NCBI GenBank assembly: GCA_020725645.1
Contig: DYEQ01000029.1
Coordinates: forward strand, 43,109-107,108
From: Candidatus Fermentithermobacillaceae bacterium
GTDB lineage: Bacteria; Bacillota; Sulfobacillia; Fermentithermobacillales; DUSS01
Length of the DNA: 64,000 bases
Direction: 5' to 3'
Part shown: in pieces, positions 1 to 42,712 of the stretch
How the letters are laid out: every line of letters begins with the position of its first letter
Numbering within the stretch: position 1 is the stretch's first letter
Program-made: the position numbers and the translations under genes
Notes under the pieces: generated by a model
Databases searched by the model: none
Seen by the model: only the letters and a program-made list of their open reading frames with translations
What the model was told of the DNA's origin: nothing

Positions 1-731
1 TGACGGCGGAACGAATGGGGAGGGACCTTGCCCTCGCTGGGATAACCGTCGTTTCGGGTCTTGCGAGAGGAGTTGATTCCCAAGCTCATCGCGGCGCCGT
101 CCGAGCTGGAGGCAGGACCGGGGCTGTGCTGGGTTCGGGTCTCGATGTGATTTATCCCCCGGAGGAGAGGAGGCTTTTCGAGGAAGTCCGGCAGTGTGGC
201 TGGGTCATCTCGGAATACCCCCCGGGGTCCCCGCCGCTTAAATGGCATTTTCTCGAACGTAACCGCCTCCTCAGCGGATTGTCCATAGGTGTGGTGGTGG
301 TCGAGGCGGGTCCCAGGTCCGGAGCTCTTTCCACCGTGGAGTACGCTATAGCTCAGGGGCGTCCCGTAATGGCGGTCCCCGGAAGCGTTACAAACCCGTC
401 GGCGGCAGGCACCAACAAGCTCCTGGCGGATGGTGCGGGACTGGTTACCTGCGCCAAGGATGTGCTATGCTTTCTCAGGCATGAGACTGAATACGTTCCC
501 GAGTTCAAAGAGAATCGGAACTCAGGCGTTTCGGTTACCTTGGAGGAAGGAGAGATCCTCAGAATCGTCGGGGACGACGTTCTTTCCCGCGATGAGATCC
601 TGAGGAAATCGCCGTTTCCCCCGGGAAAGTCGTGCGCCCTGATATCGGCGCTGGAAGTAAAAGGACTGCTCGAGCGGATGCCTGGCGGGCGACTTACCCG
701 TCGCCCAACGGCATCCTCCTTTGTGAGGTGA
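1..731 (+). CDS. dprA: DNA processing protein DprA (Smf), 5'-truncated by the window edge
   Basis: ORF 15..731 translation matches the DprA Rossmann core (GLARGVDSQAHRGA... VVVEAGPRSGALSTVEYAIAQGRPV). The frame is open to position 1. Confidence 0.85.
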   Translation, partial: TAERMGRDLALAGITVVSGLARGVDSQAHRGAVRAGGRTGAVLGSGLDVIYPPEERRLFEEVRQCGWVISEYPPGSPPLKWHFLERNRLLSGLSIGVVVVEAGPRSGALSTVEYAIAQGRPVMAVPGSVTNPSAAGTNKLLADGAGLVTCAKDVLCFLRHETEYVPEFKENRNSGVSVTLEEGEILRIVGDDVLSRDEILRKSPFPPGKSCALISALEVKGLLERMPGGRLTRRPTASSFVR

Positions 732-6811: not shown

Positions 6812-7056
6812 GATCACTTTTTTCGATCACTTTTTTGAGAAGAAGGAATCTGGTAGGGTTATGTCGAATGGAGGACCTTGCCAAGGAATATATACCGCGT
6901 TACCGATAAAGGCAAACCCGTCGAAAGGCGGGGACGCAAAGCTGCGGGTCTAAAGCCGTAAGGCCATGATAGCCGGGCTGCCGAAGAACGGGGTTACTTA
7001 TTATTTAGCCTCCTGCGGTAACGCGGGGGGCTTTTGTCGTCCAGGGGGGATGACAG

Positions 7057-34556: not shown

Positions 34557-35732
34557 TTGAGGAAAGTCGTCATTCTCGGCGCAACAGGGTCCATCGGCAG
34601 GCAGTGTCTTGAGGTAATCCAGGATCAAAGCGGCTTTTCGGTAATCGGACTTGCTGCTGATTCGAGCTGGGAAGAGCTCCTCGACGCTGCCGTCCGTCAC
34701 CGTCCGTCCTTCGTTGCAATGGTCAACGCCCAAGCTTCGGGGCGCTTAGCTCAGGCCCTTTCCGAACGGGGGTGCCCCGGTATTCAGATCTTCCACGGCC
34801 AGGAAGGGGTATGCAAACTGGCGGCGCTGGAAGAAGCGGACATCGTGGTCCACGCGATACCGGGCTTTGAAGGTTTACGTTCCCTGCTGGCCGCTCTCGA
34901 GGCCGGCAAAACCGTAGCTTTCGCAGGAAAGGAGGCACTGGTGTCCGCCGGAGATCTCGTTACGAGGACGGGGGAAAGGACGGGGGCGAAAATCGTCCCA
35001 GTAGATTCGGAGCATAACGCAATCTTCCAGTGTCTGGCGGGGGAAGATAGGGAGGATATATCCGGTATTATTCTGACCGCCTCGGGTGGTCCCTTCTGGG
35101 AATTGAGTATCGAGGAGATGGCGACGGTCGGGCCGGCGGAAGCTCTCCGGCACCCGACGTGGCGCATGGGACCGAAGATAACTGTGGATTCGGCCACCTT
35201 TTTCAACAAAGCGCTGGAGGTTATCGAAGCTCACTACCTGTTCGGAGTGGGCTACGACCGAATTTCCGTGCTTGTTCATCGCGAAGCTATCGTCCACTCT
35301 ATGGTGGTATTCAAGGACGGGAGCATCAAAGCTCTCATGTCCTATCCTGACATGCGCCTTCCCATATCGTATGCGCTTAATTACCCGGAGCGGGGTCAAG
35401 CTGTCACTTCCCAGCTGGATTTGAAAGGAAAGACGCTCACCTTCACCCAGCCTGACCCCGAGCGCTTTCCCTGCCTGGACCTGGGCTTTCGGGCGGGTAG
35501 GATGGGGGGAACTGCGCCTTGCTTCATCTCGGCGGCGGATGAAGAGGCGGTGAAGCTGTTTTTGTCGGGCGTCATTCCGTTTACCGCCATCTACCGTGTT
35601 CTCGACCTGGCTCTCTCCGGATACGAACCGGTCGAGGCATCATCCCTCGAAGTTTTGGAGAAAGAAGCTCACCGGGGTAAACTCAGGGTCAGAGAGATCG
35701 TCGATAAAGGCCTGGCATTCTCGTGGGTTTGA
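34557..35732 (+). CDS. dxr: 1-deoxy-D-xylulose 5-phosphate reductoisomerase
   Basis: N-terminal NADPH motif ILGATGSIGRQ, followed by PVDSEHNAIFQCL and ALRHPTWRMGPKITVDSAT. Confidence 0.95.
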   Translation: MRKVVILGATGSIGRQCLEVIQDQSGFSVIGLAADSSWEELLDAAVRHRPSFVAMVNAQASGRLAQALSERGCPGIQIFHGQEGVCKLAALEEADIVVHAIPGFEGLRSLLAALEAGKTVAFAGKEALVSAGDLVTRTGERTGAKIVPVDSEHNAIFQCLAGEDREDISGIILTASGGPFWELSIEEMATVGPAEALRHPTWRMGPKITVDSATFFNKALEVIEAHYLFGVGYDRISVLVHREAIVHSMVVFKDGSIKALMSYPDMRLPISYALNYPERGQAVTSQLDLKGKTLTFTQPDPERFPCLDLGFRAGRMGGTAPCFISAADEEAVKLFLSGVIPFTAIYRVLDLALSGYEPVEASSLEVLEKEAHRGKLRVREIVDKGLAFSWV

Positions 35733-36841
35733 GGGTGATCTCGTTGTCAATGTGGTCGGTTACGTTCGCTGTAGCTGTATCGCTGGTTGCGCCCGGCGAT
35801 TCTCCGGCATTCCGGATAGCCGTGGCCATCGTCTTCTTAGGAATCATGGCGTTTTTTCACGAACTCGGGCATTTTCTCGCGGGCAAGAGATTCGGTGTGT
35901 TTGTCCACGAGTTTGGTCTGGGATTCGGTCCGTCGCTGGTATCCTTTAGGGTGGGCGAAACCAGGTACTCGCTGAAGCTTTTTCCCCTTGGCGGATTCGT
36001 CCGATTCGCGGGAGAACCGGGAAGCGGCGCTGTGGGCGACGACGCAGCGGTTCCCGTCGAAAGACGGTTTTACTCCCAGCCGGCGTTGGGAAAAGCTGTG
36101 ATCGTGGCGGCCGGTCCGACCATGAATCTTATCCTGGCTGCCCTTTTGTTTTTCCTTGTGTTTTCCGTTACCGGGCTCGATCGGACCACGCCTTTCATCG
36201 GCGAGGTCACTGCCGGAAAGCCAGCGGCCCAAGCGGGGATGCTTCCGGGGGATCGGGTGGTGGAAGTAGAGGGACATCCCGTGAAAGAGTGGGAAGATAT
36301 GGTTACAGTGGTGCGCCGCCGTCCGGGGTTGCCCACCAGATTTGTAGTGGAGCGGGATGGACGGCAGCTGGAGATGGTGATTACACCGGAAAACGTAAAC
36401 GGCACCGGCATGATCGGGGTACAATCGCGGCTCGAGAGATCGCGGCTGCATCCGATCGAAGGCATGGTCAGCGCTTTCAAAGAAACCGTTTACGTGGTGA
36501 CCTTCTGGGTGAAAGGTCTCATTGAAACCATTGCCGGGAAGGTACGCCCGGAGATCACCGGGCCTGTCGGGATCAGTCAAATTTTAGGAGAAGCTGCTTC
36601 AGCGGGCATAGCTCCTTTCCTCTATTTCCTCGGGGCGATCTCAGCTAACCTCGGGCTCATCAACCTCCTTCCCATTCCCGCGCTGGACGGGTCGAGGTTG
36701 CTTTTCGCGGCGGTGGAGGGTGTCAGAGGAAAGCCGGTGGATCCGGAAAAGGAGAATTTCATACACTTCATCGGATTTGCCATCCTCATGGCGCTTTTCG
36801 TCATCATCACCTACAGGGATATCATGCGGCTTATCATGTGA
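35723..36841 (+). CDS. rseP: Site-2 protease RseP (regulated intramembrane proteolysis zinc metalloprotease)
   Basis: HELGHFLAGKRFGV zinc site, PDZ domain, and LDGS in the last transmembrane segment. Confidence 0.9.
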   Translation: MGLRVISLSMWSVTFAVAVSLVAPGDSPAFRIAVAIVFLGIMAFFHELGHFLAGKRFGVFVHEFGLGFGPSLVSFRVGETRYSLKLFPLGGFVRFAGEPGSGAVGDDAAVPVERRFYSQPALGKAVIVAAGPTMNLILAALLFFLVFSVTGLDRTTPFIGEVTAGKPAAQAGMLPGDRVVEVEGHPVKEWEDMVTVVRRRPGLPTRFVVERDGRQLEMVITPENVNGTGMIGVQSRLERSRLHPIEGMVSAFKETVYVVTFWVKGLIETIAGKVRPEITGPVGISQILGEAASAGIAPFLYFLGAISANLGLINLLPIPALDGSRLLFAAVEGVRGKPVDPEKENFIHFIGFAILMALFVIITYRDIMRLIM

Positions 36842-36862
36842 ACCGGCCGGAGGCGGAAACTC

Positions 36863-37942
36863 ATGAGGAAGGTAAGAACCCCCGTGAGGGTAGGTTCCAT
36901 CGTCATCGGCGGAAACGCTCCTATCTCCGTCCAGGCGATGACCAAGACGGACACCAGGGATTTCGAAGCAACCCTTGCCCAGATTCGCTCGCTGGTTGAA
37001 GAGGGAGCGGAAATAGTCCGGGTAGCTATTCCCGACGAGGAGTCATGCCGGGTACTGGGGCGTCTCAAGAGAGAGGTAGAAGTGCCCCTGGTAGCTGACA
37101 TTCATTTCGACCCGAAGCTCGGCCTCAAAGCTCTTGAAGCTGGTGTGGACAAGATCAGGGTCAACCCGGGGAACATCGGAGGGAAAGATGCCCTTCTCGA
37201 ACTGGCCAAGGAGGCGAGGAGGCGCGGAGCTGCCATAAGGATCGGTGTGAATTCGGGTTCGGTCGAAAGGGAGATCCTTGCCCGGTACGGCAGGCCCTCC
37301 GCCGAAGCTATGGTGGAAAGCGCCCTCGGTCATGTGCGCTTCCTCGAAGACCACGGGGTGGACGGAATAGTCATCTCCCTGAAATCGTCCTCAGCGTGGG
37401 AGACGGTAAAAGCTTACCGGCTCATCCACGAAAAGACTTCCTGGCCTCTTCACGTCGGAGTCACGGAGGCGGGGCCGGGCATGTCAGGCGTGGTGAAGTC
37501 GGCTGTGGGTATCGGTGCTCTGCTGGCGGAGGGAATCGGTGATACGGTGAGGGTATCTCTTTCGGCGTCCCCCGAAGAAGAAGTGAGAGTAGCCCGGGAT
37601 ATCCTTCAATCTCTCGAACTTCGCACGTTCGGGCCGGACGTGATCGCGTGTCCCACCTGTTCCCGCTGTCAGGTTGAGGACCTTCCCGTTGTGGCGATCA
37701 GGGTGAAAAAGGCCCTGGAGGGCGTCAAAGAGCCGCTCAAAGTAGCTGTGATGGGTTGCCCGGTGAACGGGCCCGGGGAAGCTAAAGAAGCTGATGTGGG
37801 CATCGCCTGCGGCAGGGACGGCGGAATCCTCTTCCAGAGAGGCGAGCCCCGCGGGCGGGTGGAAAAGGAAGGGATGGTCGAAGCCCTTGTAGCTCTGTGC
37901 AGGGAGGAAATCGAGGCCAGGAGGCGGGGGGACTTCCGGTGA
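36863..37942 (+). CDS. ispG: 4-hydroxy-3-methylbut-2-enyl diphosphate synthase IspG/GcpE
   Basis: 359 aa TIM-barrel with a C-terminal CxxC...C Fe-S motif (CPTCSRCQV...GCPVNGPGE). Confidence 0.9.
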   Translation: MRKVRTPVRVGSIVIGGNAPISVQAMTKTDTRDFEATLAQIRSLVEEGAEIVRVAIPDEESCRVLGRLKREVEVPLVADIHFDPKLGLKALEAGVDKIRVNPGNIGGKDALLELAKEARRRGAAIRIGVNSGSVEREILARYGRPSAEAMVESALGHVRFLEDHGVDGIVISLKSSSAWETVKAYRLIHEKTSWPLHVGVTEAGPGMSGVVKSAVGIGALLAEGIGDTVRVSLSASPEEEVRVARDILQSLELRTFGPDVIACPTCSRCQVEDLPVVAIRVKKALEGVKEPLKVAVMGCPVNGPGEAKEADVGIACGRDGGILFQRGEPRGRVEKEGMVEALVALCREEIEARRRGDFR

Positions 37943-40900
37943 GCGTGAGATTCGTGACACCCGAAACTCAAGTCTTCCTCGGCGACCTTTTATCGTGCAT
38001 CCCCGGAGAGGGCGATGCTGGGAAGGGGCTCGAGATGATTTCCCGCCTTTTGGTTGTAGGAATCGAAGTGGATACCTCCGCCGGCACCTGGACCCTTTGT
38101 CTTGAAGCGGATAATGGCCGGCTCCCTTCTGGTACGCCCAGAGAGGAGCTGGACAGGCGGCTCAGAGAAGCTGCGGTGAAGCTCGAGCGGTTTGTCCCGG
38201 AAGCCCTGGAGGTCGGGTTCAGGATTCAGGGAGTCTCAAGGGAACCCGGGGAGGTCAAGCGGAAGGGAGCGTCCGGCGGCGCTGACGAAGACGGCGTGAT
38301 CCTTGGCAGACCGGTTCGCTCAACGCCGGTAGATATATCGTCGCTCACGGGCGGAGAAAAGGAGAACGTGACGGTAAGGGGCACCATTTGCGACGTATCC
38401 GTGAGAAAGGGCCGTTCGGGAGATACCGTCGTCGAAATGGTCATAACCGACAGGAAAGATTCTGTTTTCGCCAGGGCGTTTTTCTCTGACGAGAAGTTCC
38501 TGCAGCTGTCCCCCGGCGTTACCGTCACGGTACGCGGCCGGTCATCTTTGGACAAGCTTTCCATGGAGCCTTTCATCCTCTGCCATGATATCTGCTTGGC
38601 CGAACCGGAAATGAGAAGGGATGATTACCCCGATAAGAGGGTCGAGCTTCACCTCCACACGAAAATGAGTGCTCTCGACTCCGTACTCGATCTCGAAAAA
38701 GCTATCGAAAGGGCCGCGTTTTGGGGGCACGGAGCTTTAGCCATCACCGACCACGGCGTGGTGCAGGCGTTTCCCGAGGCGGAGCATCTGGCAAGGAAAT
38801 ACGGAGTGAAGGTGATTTACGGGCTCGAGGGATACTTGGTGGAAGACGGGGGTGATACCGGGCCCAGTTACCACATCACGCTTCTCGTGAAAGATCAAGT
38901 AGGCTTGAAGAATCTCTACCGGATCGTGACCGAGTCCCATCTTCACCACTTTTACAGAACCCCGCGCATTCCCCGTGGGCTTCTGTCTCAATTTAGAGAG
39001 GGAATCCTGGTAGGGTCGGCGTGCGAGGCCGGCGAGGTGTTCCAGGCGGTCCTGTCGGGGCGGGGGTCCCTCCAGGACGTGGCCTCGTTTTACGATTACC
39101 TGGAAATTCAGCCTAGCGACGTGAACGCTTTTCTCGTAACGGACGGTCGCGTCAAGTCCAGAGAGGAACTCGGCCTTTTGAATAAGAAGATCGTCGAACT
39201 CGGCCTAGCTTTAGGTATCCCCGTGGTCATGACGGGGGATGCCCACTACCTCGACCCGGAAGACGAGATTTACAGGAGGATTCTGCTCTCGGTCAAAGGT
39301 ATGGAGCAAGGAGAAAGGCCCGCCCCCCTCCATTTCAGGAGCACTGCCGAACTCATGGATGAAGCCCGGTCGTACTTAGACCCTGACCTGGCAAGGCTCG
39401 TGGTGGTGGAAAACCCCAGGCGCATCGCGGAGCAGGTAGCTCCGGTCACTCCGGTCCGCCCGGGCCTTCACTGCCCGCGGCTAGATGACCAGGACGATCT
39501 CTTGCGGAGCATGGCCGAAGAAGGAGTACGGAAACTTTACGGGCCCGATCCGTCTCCCCTTGTAAAAGAGCGGTTGGAACGGGAGCTTCGGGCCATCATC
39601 GGAAACGGATATGCTCCCATATACCTCATAGCTGCCAGAATGGTGGCCAAGTCGGAAAGGGACGGTTACATGGTGGGGTCAAGAGGCTCCGTCGGTTCCT
39701 CCCTCGTAGCGAGGGCCGTAGGGATCACCGAGGTAAACCCGTTGCCTCCCCACTACGTATGTCCTAACTGTTACTGGTGCGAGTTGCCCAACGCCGAAGG
39801 AGCCGGGTCAGGTTTCGATCTCCCTCCCAAAAACTGCCCCCGGTGCGGACGAGATTTGATAAGGGATGGTCAGGATATTCCATTCGAAACGTTCATGGGG
39901 TTCGGCGGAGACAAGGTACCCGATATCGACCTGAACTTCTCTGGAGAGGAACAGCAGGAGATGTTCAAGTTCATTACGGAGCTCCTCGGGGAAGGCAACG
40001 TGTTCAGAGCTGGCACCATATCCACGGTGGCGCGAAAGACCGCGTTTGGATTCGTCAAACACTTTACAGAAGAAACGGGTAGAAAGCTTAGACGAGCCGA
40101 GGAAATCCGGCTGGTCAAGGGGATAGAGGGCGTCAAGAGGACGACGGGGCAGCATCCCGGCGGTGTGATGGTGGTCCCCCGGGGCGAAGACGTGCTGGAT
40201 TTCACGCCGCTTCAGTATCCCGCGGACGATAGGGAGGCGGGCGCAATAACCACCCATTTCGACTACGAATCCATTCAGGGGCATCTCATCAAGGTGGATA
40301 TCCTGGGACACGATGACCCGACCGTCCTGAAGATGCTTCAGGAGCTCACCGGGGTCGACCCGCGCAGTATACCCATGGACGACCCGGAGACTTTGAAGCT
40401 CTTTTCCGGGGAAAACCCTGACGATGCCCTGGGCATTCCCGAATTCGGGACTAGGTTCGTCCGGACGATGCTCACCGAAACCAGGCCGGCCACCTTTGCT
40501 GACCTCGTTCGCATTTCCGGGCTCTCTCACGGGACCGATGTTTGGGCTAATAACGCCAGGGACCTGATACGGGAGGGCAAAGCTAAACTCTCCCAGGTCA
40601 TCGCAACCCGAGAGGATATCTTCCTTTATCTCATGAAGATGGGCCTTCCTCCCGAAAGGGCATTTGGCATATCGGAAAAGGTGCGAAAGGGCAAACCTCT
40701 CGATGAGGAGGATATCTCCCTCATGCGCGAGAAGGGGGTACCCGACTGGTACATCCAGTCTTGCAGGAAGATCACCTATCTCTTTCCGAAAGCTCACGCC
40801 GTCGCTTACGTGACCACGGCCTTCCGCATCGCCTGGTACAAGAGGCATTACCCCGAAGCGTTTTACGCCGCGTACTTCACATTTCACGGATCCGCTCTTA

Positions 40901-41331
40901 CGCTGGACATTATCGTTCAGGGCCCCGAAGGCTGGAGGAGGTTCATCGAGCGGGTGTCGAATTCGGAAGGACCTTCCCCCAGGGACGAAGAGATCTCCGG
41001 AGCTGTCGAAGTCTGCCTCGAGATGGAAAGCCGCGGCATATCCTTCGGTGAACTGGATCTATACGCTTCGCACCCGACGAAGTATCTGCCGCGAGGTAAA
41101 AAACTCATACCTCCGCTTATTTCGATACCTGGCTTGGGTGCAAAAGCTTGCGAGGGGATAGCGGTCGCCCGGTCTCAGGGACGGTTTTCCTCCATCGAAG
41201 ATCTGAGGAAGAGGGCCGGGCTGACCAGACGCGCCATAGACACCCTCAAGCAGTATGGGTGTCTCGAAGGGCTGGGGGAAACGGACCAGCTTTCGCTCCT
41301 CGATTTCCTTTCACAGGGAGAAAACCTCTAA
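37939..41331 (+). CDS. polC: PolC-type DNA polymerase III alpha subunit with no recognisable 3'-5' exonuclease insertion
   Basis: N-terminal and OB domains, a contiguous PHP domain (HLHTKMSALD...ITDHG...YGLEGYLVEDG...HITLLVKDQVGLKNLYRIV), the PolC zinc finger CPNCYWCE...CPRCGRDL, and the polymerase core to the PolC C-terminus (AHAVAYVTTAFRIAWYKRHYPEAFYAAYFT). Only 1130 aa. GTG 37939 overlaps the ispG stop. Confidence 0.9.
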   Translation: MSVRFVTPETQVFLGDLLSCIPGEGDAGKGLEMISRLLVVGIEVDTSAGTWTLCLEADNGRLPSGTPREELDRRLREAAVKLERFVPEALEVGFRIQGVSREPGEVKRKGASGGADEDGVILGRPVRSTPVDISSLTGGEKENVTVRGTICDVSVRKGRSGDTVVEMVITDRKDSVFARAFFSDEKFLQLSPGVTVTVRGRSSLDKLSMEPFILCHDICLAEPEMRRDDYPDKRVELHLHTKMSALDSVLDLEKAIERAAFWGHGALAITDHGVVQAFPEAEHLARKYGVKVIYGLEGYLVEDGGDTGPSYHITLLVKDQVGLKNLYRIVTESHLHHFYRTPRIPRGLLSQFREGILVGSACEAGEVFQAVLSGRGSLQDVASFYDYLEIQPSDVNAFLVTDGRVKSREELGLLNKKIVELGLALGIPVVMTGDAHYLDPEDEIYRRILLSVKGMEQGERPAPLHFRSTAELMDEARSYLDPDLARLVVVENPRRIAEQVAPVTPVRPGLHCPRLDDQDDLLRSMAEEGVRKLYGPDPSPLVKERLERELRAIIGNGYAPIYLIAARMVAKSERDGYMVGSRGSVGSSLVARAVGITEVNPLPPHYVCPNCYWCELPNAEGAGSGFDLPPKNCPRCGRDLIRDGQDIPFETFMGFGGDKVPDIDLNFSGEEQQEMFKFITELLGEGNVFRAGTISTVARKTAFGFVKHFTEETGRKLRRAEEIRLVKGIEGVKRTTGQHPGGVMVVPRGEDVLDFTPLQYPADDREAGAITTHFDYESIQGHLIKVDILGHDDPTVLKMLQELTGVDPRSIPMDDPETLKLFSGENPDDALGIPEFGTRFVRTMLTETRPATFADLVRISGLSHGTDVWANNARDLIREGKAKLSQVIATREDIFLYLMKMGLPPERAFGISEKVRKGKPLDEEDISLMREKGVPDWYIQSCRKITYLFPKAHAVAYVTTAFRIAWYKRHYPEAFYAAYFTFHGSALTLDIIVQGPEGWRRFIERVSNSEGPSPRDEEISGAVEVCLEMESRGISFGELDLYASHPTKYLPRGKKLIPPLISIPGLGAKACEGIAVARSQGRFSSIEDLRKRAGLTRRAIDTLKQYGCLEGLGETDQLSLLDFLSQGENL

Positions 41332-41421: not shown

Positions 41422-42009
41422 TTAAGCGTCGCTCGGGCAGGCCGTCTGTCTCAACCTGAACAACGGGTCGGATACGGACTTGATGAGATAGACCGAGACG
41501 GGCACCTCCAGGACGAAAGAGATGATCCTAGGGGGAATGAGTACCGGCCAGGGTAATCCGAAGAGGGAATGGAGGAAATAGGGCGTCAACCCCAGAGAGA
41601 CGGTCAGCTGTCCGGCCATGACGGACAGGACCGTGGCCCAGACCTCCAGCTTTTCCCCGCGCTCTTTGCGGAGAAACCGGTAGACGGCACCGGGGATAAA
41701 ACCGGCCAAAGCTGCCGTAACCGTGAAGTGGGGCATATAAGGACCCATCGGGCTTAAGAAAAAGCCCGCCACGTCGGCGACGGCCCCCGAAACGGCGCCT
41801 GCGACCGGAGAAATCACGAACCCTGCGATGATATTGGGGATCCTCCCGAAACCGATCCTGATCCCTTCAATCCCTCCGATAGCTACCCTTATCGAAGCAT
41901 ATCTGGTAAGCACCACGGACAATGCTGCCGTCATAGCGACGAAGGCGACGTCTCGTACCCGGTGGCGGCCCGGGGATTCGCGCGTAGGCTTTTCACCGTA
42001 GCGTGTCAT
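41422..42009 (-). CDS. ECF transporter S component (substrate-capture subunit, vitamin/folate-type)
   Basis: Small six-transmembrane protein of the ECF-S type. ATG 42009 is preceded by GAGAGGAGGA; the ORF as listed extends to 42084. Confidence 0.6.
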   Translation of the reverse strand: MTRYGEKPTRESPGRHRVRDVAFVAMTAALSVVLTRYASIRVAIGGIEGIRIGFGRIPNIIAGFVISPVAGAVSGAVADVAGFFLSPMGPYMPHFTVTAALAGFIPGAVYRFLRKERGEKLEVWATVLSVMAGQLTVSLGLTPYFLHSLFGLPWPVLIPPRIISFVLEVPVSVYLIKSVSDPLFRLRQTACPSDA

Positions 42010-42712
42010 GCGTGTCCTCCTCTCGCGGCTGGAAACCTGGTTGCCGGCGCGCCCAAAAGACACAAGCTCCGGGGCTACCGGCAAATAACCCGCCTTTCAC
42101 TGTACATCAGCTGACGTCCGAAGCCAAGATGCCACGGGACAGCTGCGACGGATAGGAGATTCCCCCGACCTTTCCAACGGGTGGCACTTGCGAACTCTAA
42201 ATGCGGGGTGGTAAGATCGTGTTGCCGAAAGGCACCTTTCCCTGCTGTGTGCGTGGGTCACGGTGAGCTTGAGCCAACACCGTTGACAAGGGAGCCTGGG
42301 CTCCGTTGCGTGGCGTGCAGGCCTCCTGGTCCTGCAGGAGGAAGCACATAAGCCGCGGGAGGGCACCCACCTGCGAGAGCGGGTTCAACGTCCTCCGAGA
42401 TTCACGGCACGGCGGGGATTTATAGCGCGGTCCCACAAGGTCGTCCTCCATCCTCCCGCTTTGGTGCCTCTGCGACTTCGGAAATGTGAGCTTCGTAATC
42501 CTCAGCCCCGATATGAAACACCGGCATATCCGAATTTCCGCAGGAATTAGCTTCCGGGCAGCCTGTAGGTACGGCTTCACGTCGAATCGAATGCTATTTG
42601 CTGGTGGTGCTCAAGACAAGAATGAAGCCTTCAGATCGTGAAACCTTTCGGCGGCTCCGTTGTATAGGTCAGATGGAAGAAGGTCAATGAACACCTAAAA
42701 GGAGGTTCCGCT

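Follow-up and report, generated by a model that had tools for sequence, protein, structure and literature searches.

A natural PolC-type DNA polymerase III that lacks the DnaQ-like exonuclease domain and keeps a complete PHP metal site

The polC gene in the 64-kb window (the whole stretch of DNA analyzed, 64,000 nucleotides) encodes a PolC-type DNA polymerase III α subunit of the known variant without an integral DnaQ-like exonuclease (exo-less), and the product still passes the equivalog cut-offs of the PolC family. Direct support exists for the domain architecture, for how it is conserved, and for the nine-residue metal site of the PHP domain, which is intact. The protein is a real, ordinary addition to a class known since 2014. 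We consider it probable, with some reserve, that this is an orthologous, functional chromosomal PolC whose ancestors lost both the DnaQ-type exonuclease and the NII N-terminal subdomain, and that its fidelity is kept by its own PHP exonuclease.

The polC reading frame starts with a GTG that overlaps the ispG stop codon as GTGA, and its product matches an NCBI entry of equal length (P0001, 1130 aa) at 100% identity. The NCBIfam PolC equivalog NF001688 matched in two stretches with 1296.6 bits (cut-off 873); in the better one, profile positions 614–1445 align with PolC residues 310–1122. A further PolC equivalog, TIGR01405, scored 1204.7 bits (cut-off 1043.45). The NCBIfam DnaE models scored far under their cut-offs. 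The protein is thus a bona fide PolC, as an earlier note made from the sequence had proposed, and the motifs listed there (HLHTKMSALD, YGLEGYLVEDGGDTGPSYHITLL, TGDAHYLDPEDE, and CPNCYWCE...CPRCGRDL) are all found in the translation. A Pfam scan matched the PHP, DNA_pol3_alpha, finger-domain, and HHH_6 models (Table 1). Its nearest genomes belong to Candidatus Fermentithermobacillaceae (Bacillota), an uncultured and thermophilic lineage, which places this exo-less PolC in a Clostridia-type Firmicute. The closest relatives are already annotated as 'PolC-type DNA polymerase III' in databases.

Table 1. Features of PolC and its locus, with nucleotide positions in the window
Feature	Position	Strand	Basis
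dxr, rseP, ispG, directly upstream of polC	34557..37942	+	Pfam, ORFs; rseP and ispG inferred from translations and known gene order
polC, exo-less PolC-type DNA polymerase III α subunit	37939..41331	+	1130 aa; HMM scores, identity to P0001
NI-like α/β subdomain, residues 1–98, followed by disordered linker 99–119	37939..38232	+	hhalign, AF2
OB fold, β-barrel strands at residues 143–221, ahead of PHP at 236	38365..38601	+	AF2, pLDDT around 90
Contiguous PHP domain	38644..39303	+	Pfam PHP 236–382, E = 4.9e-30
Junction at the canonical DnaQ-like exonuclease site (E297 ... H312)	38827..38874	+	Alignment, 200-aa gap, AF2
Pol III α palm/thumb/fingers core	39499..40698	+	PF07733 E = 2.3e-53, PF17657 E = 5.9e-25
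Cys4 zinc module, C608, C611, C633, C636	39760..39846	+	Invariant in 120/120
Tandem helix-hairpin-helix (HhH) domain	41050..41283	+	HHH_6 at 1038–1115, E = 2.2e-09
Putative β-clamp-binding motif QLSLL, residues 1117–1121	41287..41301	+	C-terminal comparisons

We aligned PolC with 119 homologues using MAFFT and took the PolC of Desulforamulus reducens (P0059) as the reference for gaps. One gap of 200 aa follows PolC residue 305 and corresponds to P0059 residues 398–597; the Pfam RNase_T match of P0059 (residues 415–569) falls within it. The excision is flanked by YGLEGYLVEDGG and DTGPSYHITLL, so that exactly the 200-aa exonuclease domain is absent compared with canonical PolC. The insertion point lies between residues 305 and 306 (nt 38853 and 38854), where PolC has a 10-residue hairpin loop; in the AF2 model this is a short loop (pLDDT 82) connecting strands 291–301 and 311–317. 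The exonuclease model PF00929 gave no match over the whole protein even at E ≤ 1.

We also built an HMM from 35 canonical PolC exonuclease domains and, with filters off, searched the window and three related loci (L001–L003) with it in all six frames. The best score for an exonuclease remnant in these sequences was only E = 1.7, and a frameshifted or split exonuclease domain nearby was rejected on this search. The same search, together with a Pfam scan of 40 ORFs along the window, found no DEDDh/DnaQ ORF. Pfam, the alignment gap, and the custom HMM therefore agree with the earlier note that this PolC has no DnaQ-like insertion and that its PHP domain is contiguous. Proofreading must then be the work of either the PHP domain or another protein.

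A missing 0.6 kb would be conceivable a priori as an assembly deletion or a pseudogenizing lesion, the window being part of a MAG-type contig; we assign this explanation a negligible probability. The loss is in frame and lies precisely at the domain boundaries. Three independent Candidatus Fermentithermobacillaceae MAG assemblies (L001, L002, and L003) are collinear through the same junction, two of them (L001 at 84% and L003 at 87% nucleotide identity) in one unbroken HSP over polC, and the window has zero N runs. Of the 120 nearest homologues in databases, 85 show the same clean excision, and the sources are several (NCBI, JGI, ENA, and Logan). The lineage is under purifying selection: these 85 exo-less homologues share 47–89% identity with PolC and have lost none of the catalytic, zinc, or PHP ligands. 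With all catalytic residues intact and the in-frame junction common to independent assemblies and 85 homologues, an assembly deletion or pseudogene is ruled out as far as the sequence goes.

A second segment is missing at the N-terminus. NI aligns over residues 30–59 (hhalign, 95.6% probability), and Pfam matched neither NI nor NII on PolC. The MAFFT alignment has a 108-aa gap after PolC residue 86 (P0059 residues 66–173), and Pfam places NII at residues 89–197 of P0059; by this comparison the NII subdomain (about 108 aa) is absent. The OB fold gave a weak PF01336 match on PolC (residues 144–203) that is significant in homologues. The statement in the earlier note that all other PolC hallmarks are present therefore stands for the OB fold, the zinc module, and the core of the polymerase; the N-terminal domain is incomplete.

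The polymerase itself is intact: it retains its Asp triad and Cys4 zinc module along with an OB fold, an HhH domain, and a putative clamp motif. The columns of the catalytic aspartates D662 and D664 (PDIDLNF) and D787 (DILGHDD) are invariant in 120/120 sequences. Most homologues terminate in QLxLF; the putative clamp motif of PolC is followed by a 9-residue tail (DFLSQGENL), and its near-invariant Phe column is Leu. The AF2 model (mean pLDDT 88.4) superimposes on the crystal structure of Geobacillus PolC delta-N/delta-Exo with a TM score of 0.90 and an rmsd of 3.3 Å. The gene order rpsB-tsf-pyrH-frr-uppS-cdsA-dxr-rseP-ispG-polC is syntenic with L001–L003, and because this block upstream (rpsB-...-rseP-...-polC) is conserved, polC is placed at its ancestral Bacillota chromosomal locus.

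All nine PHP metal ligands are intact (H238, H240, D247, H272, E297, H312, C362, D434, and H436; HHDHEHCDH), and their columns are invariant in the 85 exo-less homologues. This sequence corresponds to the motif that defines an active PHP exonuclease, HHDHEH[C/H]DH (PMC12926913). The nine-residue site binds three zinc ions, and zinc-dependent 3'-5' proofreading by the PHP domain has been demonstrated for Thermus Pol III α and Mycobacterium tuberculosis DnaE1 (PMC5636811). Geobacillus PolC, reported to be without PHP exonuclease activity (PMC5636811), has N (GNVH) at the position aligned with D434. PHP sites of clostridial PolCs are conserved according to Timinskas et al. (PMC3919608). We found no biochemical demonstration of proofreading by a PolC PHP domain in the literature consulted, and PMC3656037 makes no statement on residual exonuclease activity of S. 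aureus delta-Exo PolC. The earlier suggestion that this PolC is unable to proofread in cis goes too far, because the PHP domain is on the same polypeptide and keeps the nine ligands of an active PHP exonuclease.

We extended the comparison to 191 PolCs, 64 exo-less and 127 exo-containing. The PHP site was perfect in 63 of the 64 exo-less proteins versus 84 of the 127 exo-containing ones (Fisher p = 3.4e-8, phylogeny ignored). This wider survey suggests that PolC can do without the DnaQ domain almost exclusively when its PHP site is intact, and that the domain was lost repeatedly. The closest exo-containing clostridial PolCs have the same perfect motif in 34 of 35 cases, so an intact motif is no proof that the PHP domain took over.

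We also inferred a neighbor-joining (NJ) tree of the 191 PolCs with E. coli DnaE as outgroup and reconstructed the exonuclease state by Fitch parsimony with 100 bootstrap replicates. The PolC root was exo-containing in 84/100 bootstraps and exo-less in 1/100, and the tree required 19–29 changes of exonuclease state. An exo-containing ancestor with this number of changes indicates that exonuclease loss in PolC was probably recurrent and secondary. That the exo-less form with a short N-terminus is instead the ancestral PolC, older than the DnaQ insertion, is very improbable. When the 120 closest homologues are placed in an NJ tree with midpoint rooting, exo-less, short-NTD clades are basal, as this history would predict; that tree is ambiguous, however, and the DnaE-rooted tree with parsimony and bootstraps favors loss. 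Remnants at the insertion site of three homologues (67 aa of low complexity in P0081 and 18 aa in P0052 and P0078) and the continuous gradation of N-terminal lengths also argue against an ancestral exo-less state.

The favored reading is thus that an ancestral PolC lost the DnaQ-type 3'-5' exonuclease from its PHP loop, plus the NII subdomain, and that its own PHP domain would most likely serve as a zinc-dependent 3'-5' proofreading exonuclease, the older solution of the C family. A DnaE1 would presumably partner PolC in the same genome; no dnaE lies within the 64-kb window. Alternatively, a separately encoded DnaQ/ε-like protein could supply proofreading in trans by docking to the PHP domain of PolC, in the way that ε binds E. 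coli DnaE, although we regard this as unlikely. Stand-alone DnaQ homologues average more than three per bacterial proteome (PMC12926913), mycobacteria proofread with a PHP as well as a DnaQ enzyme (PMC11348249), and the sequence covered here is 64 kb of the genome, so that such a protein or a second PolC could be encoded elsewhere. Nonetheless, no DnaQ-like ORF occurs in any frame of the window or the three syntenic loci, the near-universal perfect PHP site among exo-less PolCs suggests that the PHP domain is needed, and we found no stand-alone ε partner of PolC described in the literature consulted.

A somewhat less likely reading denies PolC the place of main high-fidelity replicase: a DnaE1 in the same genome, with an active PHP domain of its own, would replicate most of the DNA and leave the trimmed PolC a restricted or lower-fidelity role. 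Timinskas et al. raised DnaE1 as the possible main replicase for PolC + DnaE1 systems, and noted that exo-less PolCs of primary replicases are confined to clostridial-type genomes (PMC3919608); loss of both NII and the exonuclease would also fit a reduced PolC role. Strong conservation of PolC over its full length and the position of polC within an ancestral replication/translation gene block speak against such a demotion. Rather doubtful, too, is a variant in which the doubly trimmed PolC ceded the main replicase role to DnaE1 and acts as its specialized or lower-fidelity partner, or in which some unrecognized factor other than DnaQ binds at the emptied loop of the PHP domain; if true, either would imply a replisome organization unlike the E. 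coli and B. subtilis models.

The value of the finding is modest. It provides a clean natural example of a thermophile-derived minimal PolC of 1130 aa whose PHP metal site is complete, the structural equivalent of an engineered delta-Exo crystallization construct, and these properties make it convenient for asking if a PolC PHP domain proofreads. It is also convenient for studying the still uncharacterized PolC + DnaE1 replication system.

The novelty implied by the earlier note does not hold, as Timinskas et al. 2014 (NAR 42:1393, PMC3919608) had already described exo-less PolCs. In that survey they make up 6% of PolCs and come from Clostridia or Negativicutes that pair PolC with DnaE1, the sole exception being an extra copy in Thermotogae. 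Like the window PolC, those of Clostridia and Negativicutes are described there with a PHP domain without the Exo insertion, a conserved metal site, and a host among the non-Bacilli Bacillota. The part of the survey consulted does not mention Candidatus Fermentithermobacillia, a lineage known from MAGs, and the window PolC additionally lacks NII.

Geobacillus kaustophilus PolC delta-N/delta-Exo (PDB 3F2B/3F2C) aligns end to end with window PolC residues 140–1121 (1023 bits, 48% identity) and has the same domain order without the exonuclease. That construct is an engineered deletion of a canonical PolC whose PHP domain has N instead of the eighth ligand and is reported inactive, whereas the window PolC is natural and has D434. 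Thermus thermophilus Pol III α and Mycobacterium tuberculosis DnaE1 (PMC5636811) share the nine-residue His/Asp/Glu/Cys site and have no integral DnaQ; they are DnaE1-type enzymes with the OB fold and CTD C-terminal and about 20% identity to the window PolC. Canonical PolC (Bacillus subtilis, Staphylococcus aureus; PDB 9QPC) belongs to the same equivalog family and shares the OB-PHP-Pol3-HhH order, the Cys4 zinc module, the C-terminal clamp motif (putative in the window PolC), and the place downstream of rseP. It differs in having a roughly 200-aa DEDDh exonuclease within the PHP domain and a two-part N-terminal domain, both of which the window PolC lacks, and the PHP site is degraded in many PolCs of the Bacilli type.

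The polC ORF begins with a GTG codon that shares GTGA with the TGA stop codon of the upstream gene ispG, and its 1130-residue product is identical (100%) to an NCBI-deposited protein (P0001). The product passed both NCBIfam PolC equivalog models, NF001688 (1296.6 bits, cut-off 873) and TIGR01405 (1204.7 bits, cut-off 1043.45), and Pfam matched the Pol III α catalytic and finger domains and HhH in addition to PHP. Every motif quoted in the earlier note was found in the translation, and its claim that the ORF encodes no exonuclease domain held in the Pfam scan, which gave no RNase_T/DnaQ match in the protein even at E ≤ 1. The NF001688 alignment is split in two, the larger part placing residues 310–1122 on profile positions 614–1445. 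The top PDB sequence match, 3F2B, covers residues 140–1121 in one continuous stretch; 3F2B is the crystallization construct of Geobacillus kaustophilus PolC, from which the N-terminus and exonuclease domain were removed by design.

We aligned the window PolC with its 119 best database homologues. Compared with the canonical, exonuclease-containing PolC of Desulforamulus reducens (P0059, 1426 residues), it has just two large gaps. The 200-residue gap corresponds to the entire exonuclease domain, since RNase_T of P0059 falls within it. The Exo I (D-x-E-T-T-G), Exo II (H-N-A-x-F-D) and Exo III (H-H-R-A-x-x-D) motifs are visible in the aligned canonical sequences; at the junction the window PolC reads YGLEGYLVEDGG and then runs straight into DTGPSYHITLL. 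The 108-residue gap corresponds to most of NII, one of the two subdomains of the canonical N-terminal domain, as positioned by Pfam. The other, NI, is retained (95.6% probability in profile-profile comparison). The N-terminal domain had been counted among the preserved hallmarks, which stands for NI but not for NII; judged from the alignment, NII is lost in addition to the exonuclease.

A deletion in the assembly, raised earlier as a concern, is not supported. The window contains no N runs, and two independent MAG assemblies, from isolates Bu31 (L001, 84% nucleotide identity) and AS04akNAM_61 (L003, 87%), are collinear with it, a single uninterrupted HSP spanning rseP-ispG-polC in each. Candidatus Fermentithermobacillus carboniphilus, represented by a complete MAG chromosome (L002), has a 60%-identical PolC of the same architecture. 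The exonuclease is absent at the same point in 85 of the 120 nearest protein clusters, drawn from NCBI, JGI, ENA and Logan assemblies, and in all of the 45 closest (51–89% identity). The collinear assemblies and the shared absence thus rule out an artefact. An HMM trained on 35 exonuclease domains of canonical PolCs and run with all filters off found nothing in the six frames of the window and these three related loci (best E = 1.7), so there is no frameshifted remnant or split-off exonuclease gene nearby.

The polymerase aspartates (D662, D664, D787) and the zinc-module cysteines (C608, C611, C633, C636) are the same in all 120 aligned sequences. The nine PHP metal ligands (H238, H240, D247, H272, E297, H312, C362, D434 and H436; HHDHEHCDH) are unchanged in 85/85 exo-less homologues, and this motif is the literature criterion for an 'active' PHP domain (PMC12926913). 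An AlphaFold2 model computed from a 50-sequence alignment (mean pLDDT 88.4, pTM 0.77) superposes in Foldseek on 3F2B/3F2C (TM score 0.90 when normalised by the crystal structure, rmsd 3.3 Å). The C-terminus departs slightly from the usual form: the protein ends in a presumed β-clamp motif, QLSLL, followed by the nine-residue tail DFLSQGENL, an ending found otherwise only in P0002 (89% identical); most relatives end in QLxLF.

The gene order upstream of polC is dprA, topA, a xerC-like recombinase gene, hslV, hslU, codY, a flagellar operon, a sigma factor gene, rpsB, tsf, pyrH, frr, uppS, cdsA, a transporter gene (AI-2E family), dxr, rseP and ispG. This closely parallels the established order of Bacillus subtilis, with two differences: ispG rather than proS stands between rseP and polC, and the AI-2E family transporter gene is an insertion between cdsA and dxr. 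The gene occupies its ancestral chromosomal position rather than being an additional, mobile-element copy. The nearest genomes to the window are Candidatus Fermentithermobacillaceae (Bacillota, class Candidatus Fermentithermobacillia). A full-length 6S RNA follows polC at a distance of about 0.9 kb, flanked by an ECF-transporter S-component gene and a ytfJ-like sporulation gene; of the intergenic segments it is the best conserved relative to the distant L002 (82% nucleotide identity). A c-di-GMP-I riboswitch aptamer separates codY from the first flagellar rod genes, a placement suggesting that c-di-GMP controls the flagellar operon. It resembles the Clostridioides difficile riboswitch that precedes flgB.

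Coordinates of features in the window (nucleotides), the window PolC and P0059 (residues)
Feature	Sequence	Position	Strand	Source or score
dprA-to-polC block	window	15–41331	+	
c-di-GMP-I riboswitch aptamer	window	6902–6986	+	RF03167, 77.7 bits
polC (GTG start to stop)	window	37939–41331	+	
Presumed β-clamp motif and tail	window	41287–41328	+	
ECF-transporter S-component gene	window	41422–42084	−	
6S RNA	window	42236–42422	+	Rfam RF00013, 98.6 bits, E = 1.4e-18
Small α/β N-terminal domain (a disordered linker follows)	window PolC	1–98		AlphaFold2
NI-aligned segment	window PolC	30–59		profile-profile comparison
OB barrel	window PolC	143–221		AlphaFold2
PHP	window PolC	236–382		Pfam
PHP barrel, old insertion site as short hairpin loop	window PolC	between strands 291–301 and 311–317		AlphaFold2
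108-residue gap (after window PolC residue 86)	P0059	66–173		alignment
NII	P0059	89–197		Pfam
200-residue gap (after window PolC residue 305)	P0059	398–597		alignment
RNase_T	P0059	415–569		Pfam

A search of 1.84 billion cluster representatives yielded 2584 relatives at E ≤ 1e-30; the full-length sequences among the best 150 of these, together with a thinned selection from the 120 sequences of the initial alignment, gave a survey sample of 191 PolCs, to which E. coli DnaE was added as outgroup. A complete exonuclease domain is missing from 64 (60 have none at all and 4 a partial segment), and 63 of these 64 carry a perfect PHP motif, as do 84 of the 127 exo-containing PolCs, the motif being degraded in the other 43 (Fisher's exact p = 3.4e-8, a statistic that ignores shared ancestry). 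Exonuclease loss thus appears nearly restricted to PolCs whose PHP site is intact. The sole exo-less PolC with a degraded motif (P0243, 1178 residues, 39% identity; HRSLENSDQ) would lack both recognised proofreaders and might represent an additional copy, as in the Thermotogae case that Timinskas et al. mention (PMC3919608).

That the PolC ancestor simply had no exonuclease domain is disfavoured by DnaE-rooted neighbor-joining trees, on which Fitch parsimony gave an ancestor with the exonuclease in 84 of 100 bootstraps, an ambiguous one in 15 and an exo-less one in 1. Groups of exo-less PolCs that keep the whole N-terminal domain, such as P0068 from Thermanaeromonas toyohensis, are scattered among exo-containing Desulfotomaculia-type sequences. 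At the old insertion site P0081 has a 67-residue low-complexity segment, and P0052 and P0078 have 18-residue unrelated or low-complexity segments; these resemble decayed remnants, or linkers that replaced the domain. The parsimony, the scattered groups and the P0081 segment therefore point to repeated, secondary loss. The reconstruction requires 19–29 state changes, a number indicative at most because the trees are neighbor-joining with one distant outgroup. From the architecture of the window PolC, its conservation and the integrity of its PHP site, we infer that the enzyme probably proofreads in cis through a PHP zinc exonuclease. In a lineage whose PolC, and probably also DnaE1, kept active PHP sites, the DnaQ domain would no longer have been needed. 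Proofreading by a trans-acting DnaQ-like protein encoded elsewhere is unlikely, and no DnaQ-like gene emerged from the six-frame search of the window and three related loci. Timinskas et al. themselves raise the possibility that DnaE1 is the main replicase and PolC plays a lesser part (PMC3919608); we consider it quite improbable here.

The earlier reading of this PolC was essentially right and its observation is confirmed; to it are added the loss of NII, the completeness of the PHP site, and the recurrence of exonuclease loss and its near restriction to PHP-intact PolCs. The exo-less architecture is already known, and the window PolC adds a member to the class, which Timinskas et al. described. 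According to that paper (PMC3919608), all exo-less PolCs but one extra Thermotogae copy come from Clostridia and Negativicutes. PolC partners with DnaE1 there, not DnaE3, and its PHP metal site is as a rule conserved. In a 2026 follow-up the authors state that Clostridia usually have three 'active' proofreaders, the PolC PHP, the DnaE1 PHP and the PolC DnaQ domain (PMC12926913). Banos-Mateos et al. (2017) identified the nine-residue PHP site as a trinuclear zinc exonuclease in M. tuberculosis DnaE1 and noted that the DnaQ domain of PolC is inserted in the loop adjoining this metal site (PMC5636811). In Geobacillus PolC a single ligand of the nine is mutated, and the enzyme shows no PHP exonuclease activity (PMC5636811). 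At that ligand position it reads GNVH, compared with GDAH in the window PolC, whose PHP site is, by its ligand residues, complete, unlike that of the Geobacillus enzyme used in structural work.
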